DNA of 44,707 bases from Escherichia phage phiEco273, in sequence record PP786691.1. One strand, written 5' to 3'. A program made the translations under genes and the position numbers. Positions 3,891 through 39,094 of the stretch are shown here, in pieces (the stretch's first letter is position 1; each line of letters opens with the position of its first letter). Below the pieces are notes generated by a model. It saw nothing but the letters and a program-made list of their open reading frames with translations, was not told the DNA's origin and did no database searches.

Positions 3891-4105
3891 CGTTCAGTCC
3901 TCATGTTGGTGTGCAACCAATATAGCAGGGTGCTGGGGCGGGCGCAACCAATATTAATCACGCGTATGAAAAGTTGATCGCTATCTGCTGAAACTGCAAA
4001 CTGCATTTTTCACCCACCATTCTGCAACTCGCATTGGTTGCCTAGTTCATCGACGACCGCAATTTACATCATGTTGCCGTGCATTATGCAATCCAGGATT
4101 TTATG

Positions 4106-4369: not shown

Positions 4370-4600
4370 TTAATCTTTTAAATCGTCATCGGTCGCTGAA
4401 AGCGTGATGGGGATATCCGATTTGATGACCAAATTAGACGACCCATAGATGGCCCCGGTGTGCGGATCGGTATAGAAACCTATCACTCCGCGCTCCACCA
4501 TATCGTCGATTGCCTTCGTCGAAGTGCCACCTTTTGCCAGCCCAGCCTGGCGGACAATTGCCGATTTACTGAATCCAGTATGGTCCGGGTTGTCTTCCAT
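4370..4600 (-). CDS. hypothetical protein (76 aa from internal ATG overlapping primase stop)
   Basis: ORF 4370..4627; ATG at 4600 overlaps upstream stop by one base, suggesting translational coupling. Confidence 0.4.
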   Translation of the reverse strand: MEDNPDHTGFSKSAIVRQAGLAKGGTSTKAIDDMVERGVIGFYTDPHTGAIYGSSNLVIKSDIPITLSATDDDLKD

Positions 4601-6633
4601 CAGTTTTTCCAGTGCCGCATAAAGCACTTTCTCTTTTCGTTGCGCGGTCCGGCGGTGTTCTCTTCCTTAACCGCGGCCTTGCCTGCCGCCTTCGCCTGTT
4701 CAATAGCGAACGGTGCCAGGGCAACCGGTACGAGGTAGAGAGTCTCGTCGCGTGGCGTGGAGGCAATTGGCTTGACGTCCCATCCGGCAACCACGTCGCC
4801 GAAGTCTGGCCCGGTGCTGGTGGACTGGTGCGCCTCGAACGCTTCTGACTTGCGGAGATCTACCTTAACCTTGCACTTGAGCAGGACGAAGCCACGCGGC
4901 GCTTGCTTGATGCCGTTACGTGACTTCTCATGATACAGGTTCAATTGTCCGGGCTGGTTGTCGTCCGGCTGTTCCAGGAAGAACGCAGAATCGACAGCAC
5001 CATGCAGCGCGCCGGACCCGCGTGGCGTTCTGCTGCCGTTTGCACCTTTAGCCGGGTGGTGGATGACTCCCGCACTACCACCTGTATTTTCCGCGATGGC
5101 CTTCAGCGCTTTGACCACTTCACCCATATCGCTGGCGTTGTTCTCGTCGAACGGTTTAGCATCCGCGGACCGCAACGCAACAGTCTGGTTTAGTGAGTCG
5201 AACGCCACCAGGCCAACCGGTTCGCCGTTAGCGGTGCGGTTGATAAAGCTGATAACTTCGCGCAAGCCTGATTTGCTGGTGATATCCCAGCCGCGTGACT
5301 GCAGGTCTATAATGTGCAGCTTGTCCAGGTCGTGCTCATATTTAATCTGCAATGCTTCTTTACGCTGGTTGGAGGCTTCGCCACCTTCCGCATCGAAATA
5401 GAAGCAATGAGACTGGACGACCTTCGCACCGCCAAACGGAATACCGGCGGCAACCGCTCCCATCTGGCCCAGCACATAGAAAGACTTACCGATATTCGAC
5501 TCGCCAGCCATGTACCAGGTCGATTTAAAGTTAATCAACCCCTCGATAATCGGGTCGTGCTTACTGAACAGCGCAACCGGCTCGTTATCCAGATCCGCAT
5601 CGGTGCACACGCCGTATTCTTCGCCGTCGCCAACCGCATCAACGATATGTTCATAGCACGATTCCACTTCTTCGTCGTCCAGCCCCGGAAGGATGGCGGC
5701 GATTTGCTTACGGGACATATTGTGTGGCTCGACGTTCAGGTGATCCGGGATCCCGATAAGACGTAGCGCCAGGTGCTGGTGTCTGTTCAGTTCCGAGCAA
5801 CACTCGTTACCGGTGTGCATACACTTGAAACGGATCTCGCCATCCTTGACCATGATAGCCGTCGACCCTTCGCCGCTGTGCAGATGTTCGTTCGGGCACG
5901 GCACTTCATAACCGCGACCGGAAGATAACTCCTCGAATCCTGCCTGGAAGCACCAGTCCAGAATACCGTCTGCCACTGCGTCGTCACCCTGGGTAAGCTC
6001 GCGGCGTACTTCCTCTTTTTCCACCCCCAGCTTGTCAGCCAGGCGGAGCAGACGACGGACGCGGGCGCGCTTGCCATAGTGGCACTTAATAACAGACTGC
6101 TGGTGTGGCAGGTACATCAGGCGGTTTGTGTCTTTCGTGCAATCGTCGAAGTCCACATCTGACAGACCCAGTTGGTGTAATAGTGCATACTGGACGCGGC
6201 CCAGGTCTTCAGCCGGTACAGGCTTGTCAGTGAGTACCAGGAATCGAGCGCAACGCGTGCCGCCTTTCAGTGGGTGACGGTCGCCGGTTGTGGTGTGAAA
6301 TACGTGTTCCAGCCCCGCGTCAATGAACGCCTTACGGCAGCGGCGTAGGGTGCGGGTGTCGGTACGGTCAATATCGAAGAACAGGATCGAGCGGTCCACC
6401 GCACTGGTCTTACGACGCAATCCGTCACTGGTATACGCCACGATGCCGTCGGCCTTACGCTTGCGGCGCGCATACTCGGCTTTATCTTCCGTCTTGTTGA
6501 TATGCACCGAGGAGATTTCTTTCGCATCTTTGATAAATTCGAAAAATTCATCGGTGGTCATCTGGAAGTTTTCCGCCCTGGCTTTTTCGCCTTTTTTAGC
6601 GGGTCTTGTAACAGCGAATTTAATTAAGCTCAT
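4600..6633 (-). CDS. DNA primase/helicase (N-terminal primase-polymerase-like domain, C-terminal RecA/DnaB-like P-loop NTPase)
   Basis: 677 aa; Walker A GESNIGKS in C-terminal half; N-terminal region with acidic FFDIDRTD motif resembling prim-pol domains; AAGG RBS. Confidence 0.7.
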   Translation of the reverse strand: MSLIKFAVTRPAKKGEKARAENFQMTTDEFFEFIKDAKEISSVHINKTEDKAEYARRKRKADGIVAYTSDGLRRKTSAVDRSILFFDIDRTDTRTLRRCRKAFIDAGLEHVFHTTTGDRHPLKGGTRCARFLVLTDKPVPAEDLGRVQYALLHQLGLSDVDFDDCTKDTNRLMYLPHQQSVIKCHYGKRARVRRLLRLADKLGVEKEEVRRELTQGDDAVADGILDWCFQAGFEELSSGRGYEVPCPNEHLHSGEGSTAIMVKDGEIRFKCMHTGNECCSELNRHQHLALRLIGIPDHLNVEPHNMSRKQIAAILPGLDDEEVESCYEHIVDAVGDGEEYGVCTDADLDNEPVALFSKHDPIIEGLINFKSTWYMAGESNIGKSFYVLGQMGAVAAGIPFGGAKVVQSHCFYFDAEGGEASNQRKEALQIKYEHDLDKLHIIDLQSRGWDITSKSGLREVISFINRTANGEPVGLVAFDSLNQTVALRSADAKPFDENNASDMGEVVKALKAIAENTGGSAGVIHHPAKGANGSRTPRGSGALHGAVDSAFFLEQPDDNQPGQLNLYHEKSRNGIKQAPRGFVLLKCKVKVDLRKSEAFEAHQSTSTGPDFGDVVAGWDVKPIASTPRDETLYLVPVALAPFAIEQAKAAGKAAVKEENTAGPRNEKRKCFMRHWKN

Positions 6634-6643
6634 TGCCGTGGCC

Positions 6644-6973
6644 TTACTTCGAAGTTTTGTTATTGCGTACCCAGGAGCGCACGGTGCTCTGGTTAATCCC
6701 TGTCAACTCCGCGATCATCGCCCATGACTTTCCCTCGGCGCGCAAACGGATAACCTGCTTTTTGTATTCTTCCATTTCCTCATTGTGCTTCTGCAGCTTG
6801 CTCGCCGCCGTGCCGTTCAGCAATTCCAGCCTGGCGCGTAATTCTTTTTCTACACTGCGCAGGCGCTCGACCTCAAACAGCACCGCCCCAACGGCATCGG
6901 TATAAGCCCATGACCGGCTTGTTTCACTGCTAACAGTCTTCGTTAACATTTCGATTGCGTCGTTTACATTCAT
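6644..6973 (-). CDS. HTH DNA-binding protein, candidate transcriptional regulator
   Basis: 109 aa, coiled-coil middle, C-terminal HTH-like segment (KSWAMIAELTGINQSTVRSWV); first gene of leftward operon, directly downstream of a palindromic site. Confidence 0.55.
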   Translation of the reverse strand: MNVNDAIEMLTKTVSSETSRSWAYTDAVGAVLFEVERLRSVEKELRARLELLNGTAASKLQKHNEEMEEYKKQVIRLRAEGKSWAMIAELTGINQSTVRSWVRNNKTSK

Positions 6974-6987
6974 TGCTCTGCCCTCAG

Positions 6988-7033
6988 TTGGTTAATGACC
7001 AACGAAACTACACCCAAAACTGCACGGTGTCAA
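6988..7033 (-). promoter_or_regulatory. Leftward promoter (-35 TTGACA 7033-7028, 17-bp spacer, -10 TAGTTT 7010-7005) overlapping perfect palindrome GTTGGT-N5-ACCAAC (6988-7004)
   Basis: Sequence read on minus strand; palindrome lies at the predicted transcription start. Confidence 0.5.
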
Positions 7034-7148
7034 ATCCTTTGGATATTGAAACGGGCGCGCACGCGTGTAATAATAATTCCCGTCTCATTGTCTCTTATTG
7101 GTTAGCGCCGTTGCATTTTGCCTCGGCGCTTTTTTTTGAAATTAGTTG

Positions 7149-7177
7149 TTGACTCCCTTCTGCAACCAATCTAATAT
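7149..7177 (+). promoter_or_regulatory. Rightward early promoter: -35 TTGACT (7149-7154), 17-bp spacer containing GCAACCAA, -10 TAATAT (7172-7177)
   Basis: Near-consensus sigma70 hexamers with 17-bp spacing and AT-rich upstream tract. Confidence 0.55.
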
Positions 7178-7375
7178 GCACTCCGTCGACAGGATGCAGG
7201 ACGCAAACTGGAGAGGGGCAACGCAGGGGCCGGATCGAAGTGTCAGGATTCCCAACCGTGATTATATAACCAGGTCCACTACCCGAACGGGAGAACGCGT
7301 AACCTGGCAATATGTTAAGGCCACCGACGAAGTTAACTGCCGACACCTAAACTTAACCAATCGGAGATATAAAAC

Positions 7376-7894
7376 ATGTTTGAACAAATCGTAAACCTGA
7401 TTACTCGCGGCGTAGTAGCACTGGAAACCATCGCTAAGCATTATGAAACCGTTGGCGCTGCCGTTGGTAAGCCGGAAGACAAGAAGCCGTCTAAGGCCAA
7501 AAAAGAAGTCGTAGAAGATGACGACGATGAAACCGAAGACGAAAAACCGGCGAAAACCAAAAAAGCACCGGCTAAAGGTAAGGCCAAAAAAGAAGTCGTA
7601 GAAGATGACGACGATGAAGAAGCCGAAGACGAAAAACCGGCGAAGGGTAAAAAAGCACCGGCGAAAGGCAAAGGCAAGAAAGATGCCGATCCGCTGGCAG
7701 AGATGCGCGACGAGATCAAACAGTATGCCGCTATTATCGCTGGTGGTGACGACGACGATGCCAACGACGAATTCGACGACCTGCTGGAATCGTTCGAGAT
7801 CAAATCAATCGCCAAGCTGGAAGATGACGACGTCGAAGACTTCCACAAAGATCTTAAAGAAATCGTCGAAACTTATTTCGAACTGGAAGATTAA
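7376..7894 (+). CDS. highly charged acidic/basic repeat protein (172 aa), function unknown
   Basis: First ORF of rightward operon; internal 87-bp tandem duplication (7495-7581 / 7582-7668) encoding KAKKEVVEDDDDExEDEKPAKxKKAPAKG; followed by hairpin terminator. Confidence 0.65.
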   Translation: MFEQIVNLITRGVVALETIAKHYETVGAAVGKPEDKKPSKAKKEVVEDDDDETEDEKPAKTKKAPAKGKAKKEVVEDDDDEEAEDEKPAKGKKAPAKGKGKKDADPLAEMRDEIKQYAAIIAGGDDDDANDEFDDLLESFEIKSIAKLEDDDVEDFHKDLKEIVETYFELED

Positions 7895-7900
7895 TATTAT

Positions 7901-7930
7901 CCGGCCCGCTAATCTGCGGGCCTATTTTAG
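7901..7930 (+). terminator. intrinsic terminator (GGCCCGC-loop-GCGGGCC + T-rich tail)
   Basis: Hairpin plus TATTTTA directly after stop of 7376..7894. Confidence 0.5.
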
Positions 7931-7941
7931 AGGACGAGACA

Positions 7942-8193
7942 ATGGCACGCTTCACGCTAATCGAGGCGGTGGATTCCCGCGACCAGCGCCCGTACTATTG
8001 GCTATTCGAACGCATAGGCAGCTTTCAATCCCGCGTTGCCGTAATAGATAAACGCCGTAACACACCCGCGCAAATTAAGCGCACCACCTTTACTAATCCC
8101 GACTTTTATATTTGGGCGGATTCCAATCTGGAGTATGTTCGCTTTGCAGTTGCATCCGAAGCAAGAACGATTGACCGCTGGGAGACGAAATAA
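7942..8193 (+). CDS. hypothetical protein
   Basis: 83-aa ORF. Confidence 0.4.
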   Translation: MARFTLIEAVDSRDQRPYYWLFERIGSFQSRVAVIDKRRNTPAQIKRTTFTNPDFYIWADSNLEYVRFAVASEARTIDRWETK

Positions 8194-8382
8194 ATGGCTA
8201 TATTCTTTGTTTTATTTCGTTGCCGTATTACCGGCGACGAGCAACCGGAAATTGTTATGAATCAAAACTGGAATTGCTGCTGGATGCAAGCCCGAGGACT
8301 GGCGGCTACCATGAACAATGCCGCTAAGCGGGCCAATGTTGAACATGACTATTACATTGCTCAATTTACACGGGTGGAATGA
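8194..8382 (+). CDS. small hypothetical protein
   Basis: 62-aa ORF, Cys/Trp-rich; weak. Confidence 0.25.
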   Translation: MAIFFVLFRCRITGDEQPEIVMNQNWNCCWMQARGLAATMNNAAKRANVEHDYYIAQFTRVE

Positions 8383-9812
8383 TGGCGATTAAACCAAAAC
8401 GTAAGACGCAATCCGGCAGCAATACGGAACACTCATTACTCGGGCCATCCGGTGCTAAAAAATGGATGGGTTGCCCCGCCGCCCTGGTGGTAGAAAAAGA
8501 TATCCCGAACGAATCCGGGCAAGCCGCGATTAACGGTACGAGTATGCACACCGTATCGGAGGTGGTGCTAAACCGCATTATCGCCGGTGAGAAGCTGATA
8601 ACCGCGAAGACGTATAAAGGGTGCTACGTCGAGAACGAAGGCAAGGGGCCAGTAAAGGCACACCCGAAAGCACCGAAAGGCGGCGTACTGGTCAACGACG
8701 ACATGGTGAAACAGTGCGACGCGTACATCGACCACTGGCGACCGCTCATCGAAGTGGCGGAGTTTATCCAGCTTGAGATGCGCGCCGATCTGACCCGCGT
8801 CCTTCACTCAGGCTACGAGATCGACGGCAACAGGATTAAAACGTTCGGTACTGCCGATATGGTCATGGTCATGAAAAAGACCGATGGAACGTACATGCTG
8901 ATTGTTGGCGACCTGAAGACCGGGCGGCATAAGGTCGAGGCGAAAGAGAACAAACAGCTTATGTTGTACGCGCTCGGCCTGCTGCGCAAGCTGCAAACTA
9001 TGTACGACATTACGACCGTGCGCCTGGTTATCTTCCAGCCGTATTGCGGTGGGGCGTCGGAGTGGGATATTTCGGTAGAAGCGCTGGAGATATTCGCGAA
9101 GTTTGCATCCAAGCGCGCTATTGCCGCACTGGAGGCGTATTCCCGAGGCAAGAAGGGGCTTACCCGTGCCGACTTCCGCCCCAGCGTTGATGCGTGCCAG
9201 TGGTGCCGATTTGCGGATCAGTGTAGTGCCCGCGCTAAGGCCGCAATCGACACGATGACACACCCAACGGCAACCGACGAAGACCTGGGCGACGACGTGA
9301 GTATTGCGACAGAGGAAGAATGCGCCAACCATGACCGCAATATGGCCCGCGAAGCCAGGAAGGCGGCACGACGTGCGAAGCGTGGTAAGAAAGAAGCGGC
9401 CCACGGTGCTATGAGCGCTGCGGAACTGCGCAAGGCTTATGAAGGCCTGGACGCAATGCGCCAGCACATCAAGGCTATCGAGTCCGCGGTATTCAAGGCG
9501 GTCATGGCGGGCGATGGCGAATCGCTGGGCCTCAAGATGGTTGCCGGTAAGGAAGGGATCCGTAAGTGGGCGGACGAGAGCGAAGTGATTGAAATCTTCA
9601 CGAAGGCCCGGATCAAGCGCGATGTGATGTACAAAGAAACATTGCTCAGCCCTACGGATGCCGAGAAGGTACTGAAGGACGAAAAACCGAAAGTGTGGGC
9701 GAAGCTGTGTGCTAAAATCACGCGCGCACCCGCCAAACCGGTGTTAGCCCCAATCGACGACCCTCGCCCTGCGTGGTCGGAAGCTACTGACGAGGACTTA
9801 AACAATGAATAA
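8379..9812 (+). CDS. Cas4-like PD-(D/E)XK exonuclease (DUF2800-like) with C-terminal Cys cluster
   Basis: 477 aa; N-terminal LLGPSGAKKWMGCPA motif, D/E-K core (IVGDLKTG), CQWCRFADQC cluster; adjacent to SSB-like gene as in known phage replication modules. Confidence 0.65.
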   Translation: MMAIKPKRKTQSGSNTEHSLLGPSGAKKWMGCPAALVVEKDIPNESGQAAINGTSMHTVSEVVLNRIIAGEKLITAKTYKGCYVENEGKGPVKAHPKAPKGGVLVNDDMVKQCDAYIDHWRPLIEVAEFIQLEMRADLTRVLHSGYEIDGNRIKTFGTADMVMVMKKTDGTYMLIVGDLKTGRHKVEAKENKQLMLYALGLLRKLQTMYDITTVRLVIFQPYCGGASEWDISVEALEIFAKFASKRAIAALEAYSRGKKGLTRADFRPSVDACQWCRFADQCSARAKAAIDTMTHPTATDEDLGDDVSIATEEECANHDRNMAREARKAARRAKRGKKEAAHGAMSAAELRKAYEGLDAMRQHIKAIESAVFKAVMAGDGESLGLKMVAGKEGIRKWADESEVIEIFTKARIKRDVMYKETLLSPTDAEKVLKDEKPKVWAKLCAKITRAPAKPVLAPIDDPRPAWSEATDEDLNNE

Positions 9813-38181: not shown

Positions 38182-38329
38182 GCTATCCCCCTGGGATTGT
38201 GGCAAAGCGGGCCACCCGCTTGACTTCACGCCTTAATATTATCAGCGATAAAAATAATCGCAAAATTCGCTTGCAATCCGAGTATTGGTTGCATTATATT
38301 GGTTGCACACCAACAACGAGGACACAAAA

Positions 38330-39094
38330 ATGAGACTTACTAAAGACATTAAAAATCAGATTCTGGCTAACATCCTGCGCGACCACGAAATCGCAACCGA
38401 AGCCAAACAAATCATGATGGACTCGCGCGACCTGGCTTATGCCATTACGCTGGACTGTATGCCGGAAGGCATTCGCACGTTCGCCGAGCTACTCGCGCGC
38501 ATTGAAGCAATCGGCGATGACCCGTCGCAGATGTACGGCGTCTGCGTATACACCAACAAGGCGACGTATAGTTATAACACAGACCGCCCAAAAGGTATCG
38601 GCAGCGTTTACGACGCCACTTTCGAAATCAACGCAGGCGGAAACGTCCGTACCGTGTCATTGAGCGGAGACGGACACCGATTCCGAGTACATCGCGGATA
38701 CTGGGAGTATAAATACATGAATAAACTGTCTCCCGATCTCGGCGATATTGTGCCAGGGTATGAGGAAATTTTGTTAGCGTCAGTGTGCGAAGTCGACGAC
38801 GACGGGAAAGCGCTGCCGATATACATGCCACGCGGTCGTATAGACTACCCGGCGGACCATGATTTCTGTAAGCGCCTGGACCGTAACGACAAGGCCCGCC
38901 GTGAGTTGCGGGCTAAGTATGACGCGTTCAAGTTGACCGTTACCGGTGTGCTGGACCTGCACAATACTGACAAGAAGCTGATTAAGGCATGGCCTGAAGT
39001 TGAGCAATTCATCCCTTACCCGGACAAGCCAAAATCCACGGCGGTGGCGCTGGACGTGAAAACACTCAACGAGATTTGCGGCATTCCGCGCTAA
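38330..39094 (+). CDS. hypothetical protein (254 aa), opposite-strand moron within head module
   Basis: ATG 38330 with GAGGA RBS; preceded by TTGGTTGCAT/TATATT promoter-like element and followed by bidirectional terminator. Confidence 0.55.
   Translation: MRLTKDIKNQILANILRDHEIATEAKQIMMDSRDLAYAITLDCMPEGIRTFAELLARIEAIGDDPSQMYGVCVYTNKATYSYNTDRPKGIGSVYDATFEINAGGNVRTVSLSGDGHRFRVHRGYWEYKYMNKLSPDLGDIVPGYEEILLASVCEVDDDGKALPIYMPRGRIDYPADHDFCKRLDRNDKARRELRAKYDAFKLTVTGVLDLHNTDKKLIKAWPEVEQFIPYPDKPKSTAVALDVKTLNEICGIPR

Follow-up and report, generated by a model that had tools for sequence, protein, structure and literature searches.

An intergenic region of Escherichia phage phiEco273 (sequence record PP786691.1; the whole stretch of 44,707 nucleotides that was analysed is called the window here), which separates a leftward gene of 109 amino acids (aa) from a rightward gene of 172 aa, was found to contain a structured RNA domain at the 5' end of the predicted rightward transcript. 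The existence and the fold of this leader RNA are well supported, both being shown by covariation. The 1.3 kb around the locus is 80-95% identical to 175 phage records, nearly all of them Dhillonvirus, and the phiEco273 stretch itself is a Dhillonvirus, i.e. an HK578-like virulent siphophage of E. coli. A preliminary description of the region, made from the sequence, had proposed an unusually long untranslated leader that could hold either a regulatory RNA structure or a small open reading frame (ORF). The length was borne out, as the first rightward ATG lies at 7376 and leaves a leader of ~190 nt, and a covariance search of relatives recovered a conserved, covarying fold; the small ORF had to be abandoned, since every reading frame is interrupted in at least one lineage. 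What is new here is the structured RNA, which lies outside Rfam; the promoters and the terminator of the region had already been annotated in silico in public records.

A sensitive BLAST search with the intergenic region gave matches in unrelated phages at ~7196-7301, with a core (7210-7261) of 86-94% identity. Among the phages matched were Hanrivervirus slyngel, Murrayvirus Lumpael, Sortsnevirus sortkaff, Changchunvirus PHB17, Serratia phage MQ-4 and Klebsiella phage KMI8. Every matched genome has an intergenic gap of ~100-260 nt at this place, on the same strand as both neighbouring genes, and only in PHB17 and two other records does an annotated feature lie beneath the match. Altogether, the domain is present in Dhillonvirus, Tempevirinae, Murrayvirus, Sortsnevirus and other virulent enterobacterial siphophages, in which the flanking genes are unrelated. 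In the alignments, invariant blocks alternate with segments that differ in sequence and yet are still complementary to each other.

RNAalifold was run on MAFFT alignments that had not been fitted to any structure, and six helices were predicted (Table 1). In P3, GG(G/A)GC pairs with GC(C/U)aCC and the change is seen on both sides (15 versus 15 sequences). P5 occurs as CCAGGU/ACCUGG, CCUGGU/ACCAGG, CCCGGU/ACCGGG, CUAUC/GAUAG, AUAAC/GUUAU, AUUGG/CCAAU, AUGAU/AUCAU and CGCAC/GUGCG. The closing helix P1 pairs the first nucleotides of the transcript with a segment located ~150 nt downstream, and duplex folding of the unaligned ends revealed that it is re-formed by differing sequences in every lineage (GUCGaCAG/CUGcCGAC, GGGCGGCG/CGCCGCCC, GACGGGC/GCCCGUC and GACGGGUG/CACCUGUC among the variants). 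A covariance model with 39 pairs (R1) detected one full-length copy per genome at 33 loci, with scores of 147-174 bits; the phiEco273 copy (7187-7343) scored 171 bits. In the alignment fitted to this model (A5), 95.6% of the cells of the 27 distinct sequences were in standard pairs, against 30-44% when the partners were slid by 1-3 columns. Both sides had changed in 20 of the 39 pairs (3-7 in the slid controls), and the covariation score was 0.411, compared to ≤0.091 in the controls.

The domain was assigned to the + strand on account of several G·U pairs (one of them invariant), which the opposite strand would turn into A·C. Across genera, no change is seen in about 67 of the 160 alignment columns, and these include bases left unpaired in junctions and loops: the unpaired GGAGA, GACGAA, CGAAGU loop, AAC and AGAACGC show little or no variation, in contrast to the drifting P1, P5 and P6 loop. 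This combination of invariant loops and drifting helices indicates an RNA that is specifically folded or recognised, and not one transferred too recently to have diverged. Within Dhillonvirus, the 150 nt at 7196-7345 are ≥99% identical in 74 records, and the surrounding 1.3 kb reaches ≤94%. Single-sequence folds of 7184-7375 were no stabler than shuffles on either strand (z = 0.64 and 0.36), and thermodynamics alone would thus have missed this RNA. A column-pair covariation search for additional helices or pseudoknots recovered only the split of the family into two clades. Two copies of the invariant AACGC are present in the domain (7220-7224 and 7294-7298), and each of them might pair with CGU at 7257-7259; an alternative pairing or a tertiary contact is possible. 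All the partners are invariant.

Searches against known families and genomes were in agreement with a restricted distribution. No match was obtained in Rfam 15 with the whole window at the gathering threshold. At E≤10, the matches obtained with 6900-7450 were all weak and either driven by the terminator or spurious, none of them lay on 7185-7344, and the MQ-4 and slyngel copies gave no matches. The domain was absent from 5,426 complete E. coli genomes and 72,556 plasmids. The single match among 185,579 species genomes was the 42.8-kb, phage-sized scaffold QFQS01000013.1 in a metagenome-assembled genome of 'Cereibacter sphaeroides', where it is probably mis-binned. A 16-mer scan of genome contigs returned ~120 loci, of which R1 scored only this same scaffold as real and the others as chance occurrences. 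The gapped pattern AGAACGC-N-CCGACGAAG, searched in viral sequences, brought no new members, its loci being mostly chance occurrences, and two metagenome scans yielded 0 and 11 loci, of which none was real. Some phage records are titled Campylobacter, Acinetobacter or Pseudomonas phage and hold coliphage-like genomes for which these host names are unlikely; mislabelling or mis-binning is the probable cause. No description of a structured RNA or a transcriptome from Dhillonvirus or Drexlerviridae was found in the literature; the sequences of a catalogue of 10,006 viral RNA candidates (PMC10690425) were not compared, and the domain may already be listed there as an unnamed candidate.

The position of the domain is the same in all lineages. 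In every one of them, 7-10 nt lie between the end of a -10-like hexamer and P1, and on this basis the RNA would start 0-3 nt before P1. A terminator often lies just upstream of the leader promoter (47 nt before the domain in phiEco273 and 58-68 nt in three other lineages), and no lineage has one after the domain. The distance from the end of P1 to the next start codon is 23-36 nt, with the exception of two lineages with 50-55 nt, in which there is an extra GC hairpin lacking a U-tract. The linker motif CACC..UUAACCAAYC, found in the window and at five other loci, is common to several genera and stands ahead of unrelated genes. All-against-all BLASTP placed the downstream proteins in at least 12 unrelated groups, and no conserved protein partner was found in the neighbourhood, the upstream and downstream genes being unrelated between lineages. 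Since the neighbours on both sides are unrelated, the conserved unit is a cassette consisting of promoter, domain, linker and Shine-Dalgarno sequence (SD). Terminator-like sites are present 0.5-2.1 kb downstream of the domain in several lineages (at 7903 in phiEco273), and a strict terminator scan revealed no systematic terminator after the first gene in the other lineages. The gene located directly 3' of the slyngel copy, gp69 (2671-2853), has homologues in many Klebsiella T1-like phages, and the one in Roth72 is annotated as 'anti-RM protein stp1'.

Natural deletions of the domain were also found. In the Dhillonviruses of the WF5505 type (WF5505 locus 1292-1403), the segment from P1 to P1 is exactly replaced by ~23 nt that resemble deletion remnants, and the promoter, the linker, the SD, the gene and the downstream terminator are all retained. 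According to BLAST coverage, YD-2008.s, JLBYU37, Zumzum and SP1 are of the same type.

With moderate confidence, and from comparison of the sequences, we take the domain to be a portable cis-acting 5' leader of the operon that it heads, which would bind a component of the host or a ligand. The first ~160 nt of the transcript from the rightward promoter P_R (7185-7344) form a multi-helix domain closed by P1, which would fold while transcription is under way. The domain is accompanied by its own promoter, the C/A-rich unstructured linker and the SD, and this set is found again in unrelated virulent enterobacterial siphophages, ahead of unrelated genes. Its invariant junction and loop nucleotides would bind a conserved host component or a small ligand, and this binding would set the fate of the transcript at the level of elongation, stability or ribosome loading; the domain would neither code for protein nor serve as a DNA site. 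A cis role is favoured because the spacing is fixed, the linker is co-conserved and the domain lacks a terminator of its own. Several observations weigh against the domain acting as such a leader. No expression platform was found, either as an alternative terminator or as a helix sequestering the SD, and the linker is G-poor and unstructured; this, together with the absence of a shared downstream function, disfavours a classical riboswitch. The 172-aa gene can evidently be expressed without the domain, as the WF5505-type phages lack it, which would equally suit an accessory RNA acting in trans. As regards the fold itself, the alignment used for the pair counts was fitted to R1, which favours the structure, and only ~8-10 lineages are represented, so that many of the counted cells are inherited rather than independent. 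RNAalifold on the unfitted alignments and duplex folding of the unaligned ends gave the same helices without any fitting.

The main alternative, which is somewhat doubtful and still deserves attention, is that the domain is in effect a stand-alone noncoding RNA, released from the 5' end of the transcript by processing in the A/C-rich linker and acting in trans on a conserved host target, for example as a decoy or as an inhibitor of a factor of host defence or RNA metabolism. The RNA and its promoter would then be the sole conserved unit, as the unrelated genes on both sides suggest; presence and absence differ among close relatives, with deletion boundaries at P1, and the domain is restricted to virulent phages of Enterobacteriaceae and missing from host genomes and plasmids. 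The strong conservation of the loop sequences fits recognition by a macromolecule, and the anti-restriction annotation of a homologue of the gene downstream in slyngel suggests an early accessory or anti-defence neighbourhood. Against a trans-acting RNA, the domain is without a terminator in every lineage, and the tightly kept 23-36 nt to the start codon, with a co-conserved linker motif, suggest coupling to the downstream translation start; neither a partner, nor a target, nor a processing site was identified for such an RNA. A broader proposal, which can only be put forward tentatively, is that the domain represents a new class of functional RNA found only in virulent enterobacterial phages (a regulator that binds a ligand or the polymerase, a ribozyme or a counter-defence RNA) and moving between genera as a cassette of promoter, RNA and linker.

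A generic 5' stabiliser or insulator against 5'-end-dependent decay, with no specific ligand or partner, appears distinctly improbable. In each lineage 0-3 nt separate P1 from the predicted 5' end, the unstructured linker and the SD come after the domain, and some relatives dispense with it, all of which would be expected from a stabiliser. However, a hairpin alone would suffice for this purpose, the invariant unpaired bases would be left unexplained while the helices drift with compensatory changes, and the phiEco273 leader has no more than the stability of its shuffles. Finally, a DNA-level element (a replication origin or a single-strand initiation signal) or a gene for a small protein is very improbable, in spite of the primase or helicase genes adjoining the domain in Dhillonvirus, MQ-4, PHB17 and Alux-21, the 82-codon ORF (7146-7394) lying across it in phiEco273 and the coding sequence (CDS) annotated across it in the StarDew record (gp47, 4547-5290), because the domain is always co-oriented with transcription and begins at the predicted +1 of a promoter, its invariant G·U pairs are strand-specific, the WF5505-type phages manage without it and its neighbours in slyngel and KMI8 are small early genes. 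The coding option was rejected, as the copies differ in length (153-161 nt) by steps that do not keep the phase, no frame runs through in every lineage and the Motto copy has stops in all six. Given that the domain is non-coding, the StarDew CDS is an annotation artefact.

Table 1. Features of the phiEco273 control region and related sites (positions in the window)
Feature	Positions	Strand	Remarks
Structured leader RNA domain	7185-7344	+	160 nt, multi-helix; starts at the predicted transcription start of P_R
P1, closing helix	7185-7192 with 7337-7344	+	
P2 hairpin	7195-7197 with 7203-7205	+	carries the invariant GCAGGA
P1b	7206-7209 with 7331-7334	+	
Conserved purine internal loop	7210-7214 opposite 7326-7331	+	GGAGA opposite GACGAA
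P3	7215-7219 with 7320-7325	+	
P4 domain	7221-7259	+	
P5	7270-7275 with 7302-7307	+	
P6 hairpin	7279-7293	+	loops mostly of GNRA type
Linker and SD	7345-7375	+	G-poor, C/A-rich CACCUAAACUUAACCAAUC; SD GGAG 7363-7366; ATG 7376
P_R	7149-7177	+	TTGACT 7149-7154, 17-nt spacer, TAATAT 7172-7177
P_R spacer element	7161-7170		TGCAACCAAT, inverted copy of the 10-mer ATTGGTTGCA
P_s, third promoter	7046-7074	+	TTGAAA-17-AATAAT, TG upstream of the -10; annotated in HK578
Intrinsic terminator	7106-7138	+	GCGCCG..CGGCGC (7106-7130) and T8 (U8 tract in RNA)
Candidate ~55-nt small RNA	7081-7138	+	unstructured 5' part CCGUCUCAUUGUCUCUUAUUGGUUA, then terminator hairpin and U8 tract
P_L	7006-7034	-	-35 TTGACA 7034-7029, 17-nt spacer, -10 TAGTTT 7011-7006; promoter annotated in the HK578 GenBank record
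Palindrome GTTGGT-TAATG-ACCAAC	6987-7003		exact; over the predicted leftward +1 (~6999), about -4 to +13 of P_L
Helix-turn-helix (HTH) gene	6644-6973	-	109 aa; first gene of the leftward operon; ORF, Pfam, phrog_9366
Primase-helicase gene (AAA_25)	4600-6633		second in the leftward operon, after the HTH gene
First rightward gene	7376-7894	+	172 aa, acidic (pI 4.46); phrog_3127, function unknown
Intrinsic terminator-like hairpin	7903-7922	+	directly 3' of the 172-aa gene; WF5505 counterpart annotated as terminator
ATTGGTTGCA copies	3379, 3912, 3943, 4033, 4314, 4349, 7161, 13691, 16633, 16650, 18305, 18317, 22215, 38284, 38298		
Further palindromes	3905-3921 and 38298-38314		identical 17-mers ATTGGTTGCACACCAAC in opposite orientation
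phrog_9839 gene	3890 to 3585	leftward	preceded by palindrome 3905-3921
Nmad5 gene	38330-39094	rightward	preceded by palindrome 38298-38314

The control region from which the leader would be transcribed had been described as a pair of back-to-back promoters. Its divergent character stands, but it comprises three promoters and a terminator, and both P_s and the terminator had been missed. The leftward TTGACA-17-TAGTTT is present, although the term near-consensus was generous, as TAGTTT agrees with the consensus at 3/6 positions and does not pass the promoter scan. The rightward TTGACT-17-TAATAT was located as proposed, the -35 hexamers of the two promoters are 115 bp apart (~110 bp had been given), and the element noticed in the rightward spacer is GCAACCAA at 7161-7168. 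Likewise, the perfect palindrome claimed over the leftward start proved to be exact, one base to the left of the implied position, and the first leftward gene was rightly seen to encode an HTH protein. P_s is the best promoter-like match of the region (10/12) and is invariant in all the relatives compared. Only 11 bp separate it from the -35 of P_L, in the opposite direction, and P_s is the true divergent partner of P_L. Promoter-like sites are not enriched at 6000-8500 (3, against 2.2±1.4 in shuffles). At 13 Dhillonvirus loci, both P_L hexamers are invariant and the 17-nt spacer is variable; it is such conservation that lends real support to the promoters and the palindrome, which taken alone are not beyond chance. 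All three promoters are annotated in the HK578 record, and the terminator at 7106-7138 in the WF5505 record (in silico).

P_s and the terminator would delimit a small RNA of ~55 nt, which is the simplest interpretation of this segment because nothing else on the + strand could terminate there. The predicted fold consists only of the terminator hairpin (-16.4 kcal/mol). The block from P_s to the terminator is near-invariant and confined to Dhillonvirus (154 records at ≥87% identity), and no homologue of the small RNA was found in the E. coli genomes. Its free 5' part UCUCUUAUUGGUUA is complementary at 12/14 positions to UAACCAAUCGGAGA, which lies over the SD of the rightward gene (7354-7367). 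The same 5' part is also complementary, with one bulge, to the 5' untranslated region (UTR) and the SD of the leftward gene, and within this UTR the seed AUUGGUUA has its complement in UUAACCAA. The predicted duplexes have energies of -18.3 and -20.1 to -21.8 kcal/mol, in comparison with a genome background of -11.1±3.4 and with unrelated sites down to -24. The small RNA and both target sites are invariant, so that there is no covariation to read. Pairing of the small RNA with the ribosome-binding regions of both flanking first genes is thus only suggestive, and the complementarity lies within chance (~0.4 such inverted repeats expected in the region, by our own estimate), which speaks against this part of the scheme. 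The linker of Dhillonvirus also contains AACCAAU, which is complementary to the candidate seed.

P_L would drive the operon of the HTH gene and the primase-helicase gene, with the conserved palindrome at its +1. The most probable role of the palindrome is that of an operator bound by the HTH protein, which would in this way autoregulate P_L. Of 13 Dhillonvirus loci, 12 retain the palindrome, two of these with single-base changes, although the adjacent 5' UTR is variable. In HK578 the palindrome is absent and the recognition helix of the HTH protein is different, whereas the relatives bearing the palindrome all share an identical HTH region; this joint difference, a single co-variation event, would fit an operator family read by the HTH protein. 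The lone exact palindrome is not significant in itself, since the pattern with ≤2 mismatches gave 4 matches against 1.6 expected. Its half-site, however, is part of the motif family of the 10-mer ATTGGTTGCA, with palindromes of the form TTGGTT-N4-ACCAAC. The window holds 9 exact copies of this 10-mer and 15 with ≤1 mismatch, the latter against an expected 3.45±1.92 and a value reached by 0 of 100 shuffles. Several copies supply a -35 (TTGCAn) 17 nt upstream of a -10-like hexamer, and others lie in spacers or at the +1; the copies are often paired. The 10-mer looks like a genome-wide promoter or operator motif of the phage. Palindromes of the TTGGTT-N4-ACCAAC form occur at three genes (HTH, phrog_9839 and Nmad5), just after the -10 and ~10 nt before the SD.

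As an alternative to a protein operator, the palindrome might act as a 5'-terminal hairpin of the messenger RNA, as a target of the P_s small RNA in the leftward messenger, or as both. This is unlikely in our judgement. Most of the palindrome is indeed transcribed, as it spans about -4 to +13 of P_L, the order of -10, palindrome, ~10 nt and SD is found again at two other genes, and the leftward 5' UTR contains the stretch complementary to the small-RNA seed. Nevertheless, the stem is conserved in sequence and does not covary, which indicates sequence-specific recognition; the half-site 10-mer is over-represented at promoters, including -35 and spacer positions that are not transcribed, and the palindrome and the recognition helix are altered together in HK578. 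Hence, we maintain the operator for the HTH protein as the preferred explanation.

Regarding the neighbouring genes, the HTH protein matched HTH_23 (2.4e-7), HTH_28 and Sigma70_r4_2 in Pfam with its C-terminus (aa 65-105). Its public names vary and include transposase, resolvase and 'DNA recombination nuclease inhibitor gamma'. The 172-aa protein encoded by the first rightward gene gave no family in a Pfam search; it contains 53 D/E residues, and its gene includes 2.2 copies of a 90-nt tandem repeat at 7492-7683. Terminator-like matches on the minus strand at 7525 and 7612 were discarded as artefacts of this repeat. Beyond this gene, small genes and then a DUF2800/PD-(D/E)XK nuclease follow in the rightward direction. 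No phage RNA polymerase gene was found among the ORFs examined around the region, and no transfer RNA or transfer-messenger RNA was detected with ARAGORN.

Covariation of this kind, together with many invariant junction nucleotides, usually signals a specific biochemical job. The domain is predicted to form the extreme 5' end of an early transcript, in coliphages that are well studied and tractable and that include several members of the BASEL collection. The WF5505-type phages provide natural deletion controls, so that the domain can be tested directly. It could reveal a new form of early-gene control or of host manipulation by virulent phages. The early control region of Dhillonvirus is also revised, with three promoters, a terminator-delimited candidate small RNA and a genome-wide promoter or operator motif, and the mis-annotated CDSs over the RNA in public records are flagged.

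The proposed control of P_L resembles that exerted by Cro and CI at the lambda operators in having a small HTH gene next to divergent promoters and a palindrome over the start of its own promoter. It differs from lambda in that phiEco273 is virulent and has neither CI nor integrase, in that the HTH_23 or sigma region-4-like fold is placed at the C-terminus of a 109-aa protein, and in that further copies of the site motif are spread over other promoters of the phage. The lambda oop and P22 sar RNAs are short regulatory transcripts of phages, each made from a promoter of its own and ended by an intrinsic terminator. The ~55-nt candidate is like them in lying between a good promoter and an intrinsic terminator, within the early control region, and in being complementary to nearby translation starts; unlike them, it overlaps no gene in antisense, its pairing would be imperfect, in trans and not beyond chance, and it is found only in Dhillonvirus.

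For the leader itself, one system to be compared is the put RNA, which has ~70 nt and two stem-loops. The put RNAs of HK022, which were reportedly described by King et al. in 1996, are cis-acting processive antiterminator RNAs of a lambdoid phage. The domain would share with put the character of a phage-encoded, promoter-proximal and protein-independent structured RNA that heads an early operon transcribed by the host RNA polymerase and acts whatever genes follow, and phiEco273 does have a terminator after the first gene. On the other hand, the domain has 153-161 nt, at least six helices and a closing P1, against the two stem-loops of put, and the downstream terminator persists in the WF5505-type phages, from which the domain is missing. 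For a put-like antitermination, then, the position would fit but the architecture does not, and the WF5505 case weakens the analogy. Possible resemblances to the glycine riboswitch (GGAGAG, GGGGCAA), a k-turn, loop E, the sarcin-ricin loop or a CsrA hairpin (GCA-GGA-UGC) were considered and are not claimed. The domain departs from riboswitches in the missing expression platform and the unrelated downstream genes, in remaining without a match in Rfam at E≤10 for the three lineages searched, and in being restricted to phages and dispensable in close relatives. What it has in common with riboswitch aptamers and orphan riboswitch candidates is its location in a 5' UTR, the closing P1, the multi-way junction, the GNRA-type loop and the strong covariation and, as in those aptamers, its invariant nucleotides concentrate in the junctions and loops.

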